From the NCBI GenBank assembly GCA_964650545.1, contig CAZYTZ010000001.1, positions 23,686 to 87,685 on the forward strand: a DNA stretch of 64,000 nt. The letters are read 5' to 3'. The position numbers were made by a program, and so were the translations under genes. This DNA comes from Candidatus Micrarchaeota archaeon. Lineage in GTDB: Archaea > Micrarchaeota > Micrarchaeia > Anstonellales > Anstonellaceae. Shown here piece after piece: positions 24,231 to 32,502 of this stretch. The notes beneath the pieces were generated by a model that saw nothing but the letters and a program-made list of their open reading frames with translations, did no database searches and was not told the origin of the DNA. Position 1 is the stretch's first letter, and each line of letters starts with the position of its first letter.

Positions 24231-24245
24231 CTTGACTCTGATGCC
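24231..24245 (+). repeat. Copy 1 of the exact 15-mer CTTGACTCTGATGCC, which is also found at 29217 and 32488.
   Basis: It is an exact sequence match. A gactctga half-copy lies 26 nt upstream. Confidence 0.6.
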
Positions 24246-24581
24246 CCTATCTAACACTAACTACAACCAATTAGAAATAACCATTAATCATCGAAGAATC
24301 GCCCCGGAAGACGATTGATGCGCACATTATTCACAGGAGATTAATAATACAGCCCAAGGCTAACTCAAAGGAGCAAACTCAGGCGGGCTATAATTTCTTG
24401 TGCCATATCTTGTCGTCCGTCGTCTGTGGCTTATTGACGCCGCCTTCCTTGTCCGTAAGCAAGTCATCGTAGATTTTTGTTTCAGGCTTGCCGTCGCTGT
24501 CTGCGATGGTGCGAAGGCGATAACAAGGACTGAGGTGCCGGAGACGGTGGCGGGGATGTTTGGATAACGGACGGTCTGAAG

Positions 24582-25337
24582 TTATATTGGCTTACTCGCC
24601 CCCCAAAATTCCTCAAAATAAGCTTTGAAAGAATCCGCAATCTGCTGGTTGGTTATCTCTATTGTGACCGGCGCATCCGACTGCAAGCCGATCACCACAA
24701 CATCCTTGTAGCCCATTATCCATGCTGGCGCGCTCAAGCCCGATGGCATGTAGCGTGCGTCACAGCCTGCAAAGCTGTTCCTGTTCTTCAGTATTTTCGC
24801 ATCCGTGTCTTTCTGGAAAAGCAGCCTGCACTTTATGCCTGCCTTCACCCTCCTTGCGTGGTCGCGCTTCCAGTAAGAGTGGAAATGCTCTTCCTGCTCT
24901 GTGGGGATTCCAAGGAAATAGTATTCTTCCCCTGATTTCAGTTTCCCATACATGTTCTCATGAGCAGATACCATTCCACGGAAGCCAATGTATAGGCGCG
25001 CCTCGGGCACCTTTGCCGCTTTCTGCATTGCCATGAGCTTGGGAATCATTTCCTCTATTTTCCTGCTGCTTTCCTCAAGCCTCTTTTTCCTCTCAGCCAT
25101 GTAATCCAGTATGCTTGAAGGGGAGGCTGCCTGGAAGTGCTTTGTCTTCTCCTTTACAACATAGGTGACAAGCCCCTTTTGCGCCAGCCTCTCGAGTAGT
25201 TGGTAGACTATGCAGCGCGCAACCCCCGACTTCTCTACAATGGGGCCGGTGGTCGCGCTTCCCAGCTCAAGGAGGGCAATATACACCTTTGCCTCGCCCT
25301 CGGTCAGCCCTGCTTCGCGAAGTATCGAGATGTCCAT
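24582..25337 (-). CDS. TrmB-family transcriptional regulator.
   Basis: It has the N-terminal TrmB wHTH (LTEGEAKVYIALLELGSATTGPIVEKSGVARCIVYQLLERLAQKGLV). Confidence 0.7.
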   Translation of the reverse strand: MDISILREAGLTEGEAKVYIALLELGSATTGPIVEKSGVARCIVYQLLERLAQKGLVTYVVKEKTKHFQAASPSSILDYMAERKKRLEESSRKIEEMIPKLMAMQKAAKVPEARLYIGFRGMVSAHENMYGKLKSGEEYYFLGIPTEQEEHFHSYWKRDHARRVKAGIKCRLLFQKDTDAKILKNRNSFAGCDARYMPSGLSAPAWIMGYKDVVVIGLQSDAPVTIEITNQQIADSFKAYFEEFWGASKPI

Positions 25338-25483
25338 GCCTACCTTATGCGCGCCAGAGCTTATAATTGTGCCTATTTGCTCTACTAGTCATAGTAGGCA
25401 AACCTATTTATTCCCCTACCACCACAAAACACAACACAGGACAACAGAAAGGGAGGAACAAAAAACAAAACGAGGTGGTTGGG

Positions 25484-32300: not shown

Positions 32301-32336
32301 GGGAATCCCTCCACGGTTTGTGCTTTGTGATAACAT
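29310..32336 (-). CDS. ppdK: Pyruvate phosphate dikinase.
   Basis: It has the PPDK N-terminal ATP-grasp motifs ([44 protein letters not shown]), the central phospho-His domain ([10 protein letters not shown]) and a C-terminal PEP-utilising domain. The start is M1 (32336) or M13 (32300). Confidence 0.85.
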   Translation of the reverse strand: [1008 protein letters not shown]

Positions 32337-32487
32337 GGGTTTTTAAGGGGTGTGGGGCAGGAATTGCCCGCCCTTCCCAAACCCATCTATCTTTTCCCTG
32401 TAATCTGACGGGGGCATACAACCTGATGGCATCAGCCGGCCTGATGCCAATGTTCCACGACGCTCACGCCATCAAACCATGCTGGCC

Positions 32488-32502
32488 CTTGACTCTGATG
32501 CC
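32488..32502 (+). repeat. Copy 3 of the 15-mer CTTGACTCTGATGCC.
   Basis: It is an exact match. The palindrome ctgatggcatcag lies at 32423-32435, and ctgatgcc lies at 32441-32448. Confidence 0.6.

Follow-up and report, generated by a model that had tools for sequence, protein, structure and literature searches.

Direct repeats at the 3′ end of a box C/D small RNA gene point to site-specific insertion of gene modules in a Micrarchaeota genome

The insertion of mobile DNA at the 3′ ends of transfer RNA (tRNA) genes is textbook biology. When islands, proviruses and plasmids integrate at tRNA or transfer-messenger RNA (tmRNA) genes, an intact RNA gene marks one end of the inserted DNA, its tail recurs, displaced, at the far end and between inserts arranged in tandem, an arm stands beside the core, relatives carry empty sites, and the same site is filled independently in another species. 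Here we describe a locus that shares these features in a 64-kb stretch of DNA (the window) from an uncultured, Anstonellaceae-like freshwater Micrarchaeota (DPANN) population, in which a 15-bp sequence present in three copies would be the core. In contrast to the tRNA and tmRNA systems, the target at this locus is the gene of a box C/D small RNA (sRNA), the core has no more than 15 bp, and the inserts, which lack an integrase, are modules of one to three genes and can be as small as 515 bp. Reduced DPANN genomes are thought to rely heavily on gene gain and loss, and no report of a C/D sRNA gene used as an insertion site was found in the searchable literature.

Other described systems resemble the locus in part. 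Casposons in A. boonei duplicate 15 bp at a site that overlaps the 3′ end of a tRNA-Pro gene, they insert in tandem at this one site, and the enzyme requires a segment of the RNA gene upstream of it (PMC5137440). In the locus described here, however, Cas1, PolB and terminal inverted repeats were not found, and the inserts consist of ordinary cellular-type genes. Integron arrays and the clusters of attC sites lacking integron-integrases (CALINs), including the archaeal ones, have in common with this locus the presence of recombinase-less cassettes at a fixed site, a short core at each junction and palindromic non-coding elements at the cassette ends (PMC9668308). Here, in contrast, IntI was not found nearby and no tyrosine recombinase was found in the window, the 15-bp core is not GTTRRRY and lies centrally in a palindrome instead of at its edge, and the cassettes have their own promoters and mixed orientations; neither the core nor the palindrome arms contain GTTRRRY/RYYYAAC, as judged by reading. 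The arrangement thus works like the tRNA-gene hotspots and its cassette-like arrays resemble integrons and CALINs, but it lacks the marks that define casposons and integrons. As for the target, archaeal box C/D sRNAs (Rfam sR1, sR5 and snoPyro_CD; Pyrobaculum, PMC6009581) have the canonical boxes, the 11-12-nt guides and the covarying terminal stem that are also seen in the RNA described below. In Pyrobaculum, sRNA genes are themselves mobile, and copies that look like miniature inverted-repeat transposable elements (MITEs) are known (PMC6009581), whereas in the Micrarchaeota locus the sRNA gene is the landing site and stays put.

The scan of the window for the 15-mer CTTGACTCTGATGCC gave exactly three matches, at positions 24231, 29217 and 32488, all on the + strand, which confirmed the three identical same-strand copies reported in the preliminary description of this DNA. 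When up to two mismatches were allowed, no fourth copy appeared in the window, and at three mismatches there were just five weak further matches. Three matches were reached in none of 100 shuffles, and the earlier argument that a chance origin is very unlikely therefore holds. The likeness among the three copies breaks off sharply on both sides of the 15-mer. The coordinates of the open reading frames (ORFs) also bore out that every copy lies in a non-coding spacer with the gene context described before, i.e., copy 1 between the stop codons of hjc (24168) and TrmB (24582), copy 2 between the start of AlbA_2 (29070) and the stop of ppdK (29310), and copy 3 between the start of ppdK (32300) and the next + strand ORF (32681). 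Six independently assembled contigs of the population, which are 99.9% identical, keep every copy that they span. Chimeric contigs at the repeats are unlikely, because 15 bp is far below the k-mers used by assemblers and the six independent assemblies are concordant.

Copy 1 (24231-24245, + strand) is the tail of what its sequence identifies as a canonical archaeal box C/D methylation-guide sRNA gene (24189-24245, + strand), with the structure GGCAG-ATGATGA(C)-GCATTACGACT-CTGA(D′)-CTTG-TGATGA(C′)-CGTGACTTGACT-CTGA(D)-TGCC. The 15-mer is made up of the final 7 nt of the D guide, followed by the D box CUGA and the 3′ half of the stem. A strict regular expression for the boxes had a single match in the window, at this site, with the boxes spanning 24194-24241. 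The C box RUGAUGA and the CUGA D box lie near the ends of the RNA, the D′ and C′ boxes are internal, and all of them are kept in seven genomes; the D′ guide of 11 nt, the D guide of 12 nt and the overall length of 57 nt are those of such an sRNA. The gene is located directly behind hjc in six other Micrarchaeota species (Hjc 80-88% identical) with invariant D guide and boxes, and its 4-bp terminal stem is 100% paired across species (GGCA/TGCC, GGCG/CGCC and GACG/CGTC) by means of compensatory changes in two of the four pairs. Although about 15 archaeal C/D families of Rfam match the sRNA below threshold, none reached the gathering score, the best match being sR1 with 29.6 bits (E 1.3e-5) versus the 45 bits needed, which is expected because the Rfam C/D families are guide-specific. 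The boxes, the guides and the compensated stem pairs demonstrate the identity of this predicted sRNA, and they place on record, for Micrarchaeota, a conserved family of C/D sRNAs; these archaea are not mentioned in PMC6009581 or PMC7994747.

The invariance of the D guide argues for a real target of this guide. Its complement, AGTCAAGTCACG, was matched nowhere except in the sRNA gene itself when the window and the fetched loci, which hold no ribosomal RNA, were searched, and GUCAAGUCA may resemble a conserved segment of 16S, a possible lead to the target. A likely TATA box for the sRNA, TTAATATAAA, was observed at 24160-24169, overlapping the hjc stop codon about 25 nt 5′ of the sRNA. In contig L175, the sRNA begins 6 nt past hjc, which places its promoter within hjc or implies processing from the hjc transcript. 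Sites 2 and 3 were also considered as further C/D sRNA genes and rejected, since Rfam gave no match at E values up to 10, the regular expression gave none, and their upstream flanks do not look like its 5′ portion. Of the sRNA, copies 2 and 3 comprise no more than the final 15 nt.

To place the repeats in their genomic context, the hjc locus was compared with that of related contigs (L167-L176; hjc 80-88% identical), of which L167-L172 and L174-L176 represent six related species. In these contigs the gene order is CBS-(Zip)-hjc-sRNA-small ORFs-MFS, and the genes encoding TrmB, a 657-amino-acid (aa) protein, AlbA_2 and PpdK are all absent at the hjc/sRNA position. Seven of them (L167, L168, L169, L171, L174, L175 and L176) have one core copy each and no insert. 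In the window, the 8.2 kb from 24246 to 32487, with the four extra genes, fill exactly the interval from copy 1 to copy 3, and MFS and a weakly homologous TPR ORF come after copy 3. The flank that follows copy 3, AAAAACA, is like the sRNA flank in the relatives (AAACA, AAATCA or AAATCAAAAC), and the flanks after copy 1 (CCTATC) and copy 2 (TCATAT) are unlike it. Because the relatives lack the four genes at this locus, the comparison shows 24246-32487 to be DNA inserted behind the sRNA gene, and the sequence expected for the junction of the empty site is ...CGTGACTTGACTCTGATGCCAAAAACAG...

As in att-type elements, direct repeats equal to part of the target gene bound the insert while the target remains intact, and an unoccupied site with a single core exists in related genomes. 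The 15-mers are thus very probably the junction repeats of site-specific insertion at the sRNA tail, with copy 1 as the left junction (attL-like core) and copy 3 (32488-32502, + strand), which is followed by AAAAACA, as the right junction (attR-like core). The pattern is that of tandem insertion at the 3′ end of an RNA gene, in which the intact gene holds the first repeat and tail copies stand between and after the inserts, and we conclude that the 3′ end of the sRNA gene is a site-specific insertion hotspot. With regard to the explanations put forward in the preliminary description, a small dispersed repeat came closest, but copy 1 is the 3′ end of an sRNA and copies 2 and 3 bound inserted DNA, and an element associated with promoters or terminators received no support. 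The gene context and the statistical argument of that description were right, and its interpretation, wrong for the most part, is only partly supported.

A second case was found in L173, a contig from a different species (Hjc 85% identical) in which TrmB, the 657-aa protein, AlbA_2 and ppdK are also absent at the locus, yet two exact copies of the 15-mer are present 530 bp apart. Behind the sRNA, these copies enclose a 515-bp insert (4691-5205) with an extra 132-aa ORF, for which neither a homologue in the fetched loci nor a family match was found, and the second copy is followed by AAAAATT, like the flank of copy 3 in the window. L173 is thereby shown to carry an independent second insertion at the same position. 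When the 67 nt before the second core of L173 were compared with the 67 nt before copy 2 of the window, 32 of the 67 positions were identical in a fixed register, the mean of the shuffle control being 16.9 (sd 3.6), and the global score was reached in 0 of 500 shuffles. The common layout of the right arm is GGCAAAA..CC, about 10 nt, TCTGATG(C/T)CC (TCTGATGCC), about 17 nt and the core. This alignment shows that, at the sequence level, two different cargoes share a right-end arm beside the core. The use of the same 15-bp site by different recombinase-less inserts in two species, together with the shared arm, suggests a specific machinery that moves small self-contained modules, among them the central-metabolism gene ppdK, in DPANN archaea. 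Such islands can also be located in metagenome-assembled genomes by way of short exact repeats of an sRNA tail.

The inserted DNA of the window consists of two modules. Module 1 (24246-29216; 4971 bp), whose position is empty in L167-L176, begins with CCTATCTAAC and ends with GCATAG before the core. According to family searches of the Pfam type, it encodes a TrmB-family helix-turn-helix (HTH) protein (24582-25337, - strand), the 657-aa protein, with an Ocnus domain and repeats (25484-27457, + strand), and a Schlafen AlbA_2-HATPase_c_4-winged HTH (wHTH) protein (27688-29070, - strand). The 657-aa protein has an unusual architecture, i.e., an N-terminal Janus/Ocnus (phosphohistidine-phosphatase-like) domain followed by a long UPF0147-like array of helical repeats, and it had no match in viral contigs. 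A homologue of the AlbA_2 protein that is 86% identical is encoded in an unrelated gene neighbourhood, where it has the same promoter and lacks the palindrome described next.

Copy 2 (29217-29231, + strand) constitutes the junction between modules 1 and 2 and is located within the 42 nt at the centre of an imperfect palindrome of 108 bp (29167-29274; fold z -4.0). The outer arms of this palindrome are GGCAAAAAAGCCA and TGGCTGTTTTTGCC, and the inner arms are TCTGATGCCA (29190) and TGGCATCAGA (29242). The right end of module 1 forms its left arm and, together with the core, is the segment that resembles the right end of the L173 insert; the left end of module 2 forms its right arm. Comparison of the first of these ends with the reverse complement of the second gave a score of 24, the null maximum being 22. 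The palindrome arms do not occur elsewhere in the window. A repeated MITE or terminal inverted repeats were considered and discarded, since the insert ends have no significant inverted repeats and the palindrome arms are unique in the window.

Module 2 (29232-32487; 3256 bp) begins with TCATATATAG, ends with GCTGGCC before the core, and contains ppdK (29310-32300, - strand) with its own promoter (TATA near 32340) and a T-rich terminator. At its right end, 40 nt before copy 3, there is a hairpin, GGCATCAG-CCGGC-CTGATGCC (32428-32448), and besides this GGCATCAG-N5-CTGATGCC hairpin CCTGATGCCA also lies before copy 3. The search for ppdK in genome contigs yielded two useful relatives, L007 and L008, and the search of metagenome contigs yielded bacterial homologues alone (about 42% identity). 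The ppdK promoter is kept in L007 and L008, where the 15-mer/8-mer motif is absent. The neighbours of ppdK differ in the window, L007, L008, L179 and L181, and gene order is fluid in these Micrarchaeota genomes. In L007, ppdK and its promoter are flanked by a 61-nt direct repeat (550-610 and 3596-3656; 98% identical) that is the 3′ end of an adjacent gene encoding 231 aa, which suggests independently that ppdK is mobile as a unit of one gene. No direct repeats were found around ppdK in L179, L180 and L181.

The 8-mer CTGATGCC was observed 16 times in the window versus 3.6 expected. Within 80 nt of copies 2 and 3 there are four additional copies versus 0.07 expected (P ~9e-7), and of the other nine, eight are located within coding sequence and look like background. 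The copies around the repeats, as well as CTGATGGCATCAG at 32423 and GGCATCAGA at 29243, are present as had been described. A relative of the 15-mer with three mismatches, CTTCTTTCTGATGCC, was observed at 43473-43487 with the exact 8-mer at its end; it lies in the divergent promoter spacer between a gene for a 265-aa protein and one for a 372-aa TrmB protein (TrmB-372), within a second island, and may be due to chance.

As regards the mechanism, our first choice, which we propose tentatively and at somewhat less than even confidence, is att-type site-specific recombination, as known for tRNA-gene targets, with the recombinase acting in trans. It is preferred because it accounts both for the arm common to the inserts and for the clustering of half-sites. 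DNA was very probably inserted right behind the sRNA gene at least twice in this lineage, comprising ppdK with its promoter and the TrmB/657-aa/AlbA_2 module, and every event added one 15-bp copy; as the outcome, copy 1 is in the intact sRNA, copy 2 between the modules and copy 3 next to the original downstream flank. Under the att-type mechanism, the incoming DNA would bring the 15-bp core beside the arm of about 50 nt whose layout, GGCAAAA..CC to TCTGATGCC to core, is given above, and a recombinase encoded elsewhere would cross over within the core and leave the sRNA intact. The additional copies of CTGATGCC and GGCATCAG probably represent arms of the recombination site, where they would bind the recombinase, and the palindrome at copy 2 would result from the arm of module 1 being joined to that of module 2. 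Here we infer the enzyme, the order of the events and any present activity of the sites.

Several observations weigh against this proposal. Neither an integrase, a transposase, Cas1 nor a recombinase was found in the modules with Pfam, NCBIfam, PHROGs and PADLOC, and none of these was found elsewhere in the 64 kb. The scan of viral contigs revealed no free element with a matching attP, the 45 single matches to the 15-mer in these contigs being unrelated and attributable to chance. The left ends of the inserts have nothing in common, and the right end of module 2 is unlike the other right ends except for CTGATGCCA. None of the six population contigs showed the site empty or half-filled. The composition of module 1 is mixed (G+C content of about 0.48-0.52 for TrmB and the 657-aa gene, and 0.57 for AlbA_2), and the AlbA_2 homologues are graded across Micrarchaeota, which suggests that the inserted DNA may be in part relocated resident genes and not a foreign element. 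The difference from the relatives might also be ascribed to loss of the genes in every one of them, which is far less parsimonious than insertion.

A broader interpretation, which we regard as improbable, is that the 3′ end of the sRNA gene is a dedicated gene-capture locus, where a trans-acting integrase would insert promoter-bearing cassettes behind the sRNA as a leader and 15 bp would be duplicated or reused each time. Candidates for this integrase are a Cas1/casposase-like enzyme that would measure off 15 bp or a new recombinase recognising the CTGATGCC arms. If true, the locus would parallel CRISPR spacer acquisition, or an integron, at the scale of genes in DPANN archaea with their reduced genomes, and it could explain the transfer of single metabolic genes like ppdK among Micrarchaeota genomes.

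The serious rival to att-type recombination, although an unlikely one, is a casposase-like enzyme of the Cas1 family, or another staggered-cut insertion, that duplicates 15 bp. The sRNA gene would act as the leader, nicks 15 bp apart would be joined to arbitrary DNA ends, and gap repair would duplicate 15 bp per event, so that the repeats would be target-site duplications and not an att core. The repeat has a length of exactly 15 bp in the window, and of 15-16 bp in L173, as in the 14-15-bp target-site duplications of casposons, and its boundaries are equal in independent events. Its location at the 3′ terminus of a gene for a small RNA and the tandem array of modules also recall the A. boonei enzyme, and the lack of an integrase and of inverted ends in the inserts would fit as well, since in vitro casposases can integrate DNA that has no terminal inverted repeats, even a whole gene (PMC7786333). 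However, Cas1 and PolB genes were not found in the 64 kb, nor were terminal inverted repeats (end-to-end alignments scored no higher than shuffled controls), and a right arm common to two independent inserts and clustered half-sites would not be expected if arbitrary DNA were captured.

Somewhat less likely than a casposase-like insertion is homologous recombination between dispersed elements made of arm and 15-mer, by which modules would have been translocated within the genome. The dispersed element would be a 65-nt unit that starts with GGCA and ends with TGCC, possibly a decayed sRNA paralogue. The graded series of AlbA_2 genes in Micrarchaeota, the 86% identical homologue in another context and the fluid gene order are in agreement with such an origin, as is the fact that the right arm plus the core has about the length of the sRNA, with GGCA at its start and TGCC at its end. 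Nevertheless, the right arms have no significant similarity with the 5′ portion of the sRNA, a stretch of 15 bp is very little for homologous recombination, and further copies were not found in the 64 kb or in the 10-20 kb around the sRNA in relatives. The equal boundaries in two species, moreover, suit a defined enzyme site better.

It is very improbable that the repeats are operator sites of the TrmB-like or the AlbA_2/wHTH factor with the inverted repeats of CTGATGCC and GGCATCAG as half-sites, as had been suggested earlier. Inverted 8-mers with short spacers are indeed present at sites 2 and 3, and two HTH proteins are encoded nearby, but copy 1 lies inside an sRNA that is also present in relatives lacking both regulators at the locus, and the sites are some 100-150 nt upstream of the TATA boxes of AlbA_2 and ppdK. 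In addition, these promoters are kept motif-free in relatives (ppdK in L007 and L008; AlbA_2 in L227), and CTTGACT, 7 nt of the exact repeat, has no palindromic partner.

Most doubtful of all is an action of the sRNA, or of L7Ae, on the ppdK mRNA by pairing: GGCAUCAGAGUCAAG is found on the ppdK-sense strand on both sides of ppdK and is the full complement of the final 15 nt of the sRNA, but some 150 nt separate site 3 from the conserved TATA box of ppdK downstream of it, which places the site outside the 5′ untranslated region (UTR), site 2 lies past the T-rich terminator, only 7 of the 12 guide positions would take part, and the duplex would have to include the D box and the terminal stem, which in C/D ribonucleoproteins (RNPs) are buried in the kink-turn RNP. 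An antisense effect of the sRNA on the ppdK UTRs was rejected in view of the conserved ppdK promoter between the gene and site 3.

Other features of the window were observed away from the sRNA locus. A second lineage-specific island of about 8 kb (39779-47813) is located between the genes for Pelota and RFC, which in relatives are adjacent and convergent (3 nt apart in L167 and 40 nt in L169). It encodes AbiEii and a partner of 216 aa, three paralogues of about 525 aa that had no match in Pfam, the 265-aa protein and the 372-aa TrmB mentioned above, and no flanking direct repeat of at least 8 nt was found around it. Three consecutive very large ORFs of 1621, 807 and about 1125-1158 aa (7274-18061, - strand) have no Pfam match. 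A 92-nt tRNA match (54606-54697, - strand) at the Rfam threshold (29.7 bits), which was not called by ARAGORN, is probably an intron-containing tRNA. An AAA ATPase gene (62623-63906, - strand) is interrupted by an intein with a LAGLIDADG homing-endonuclease domain, and two toxin-antitoxin pairs of the AbiEi/AbiEii type are encoded at 55156-56726 and 39779-41055.

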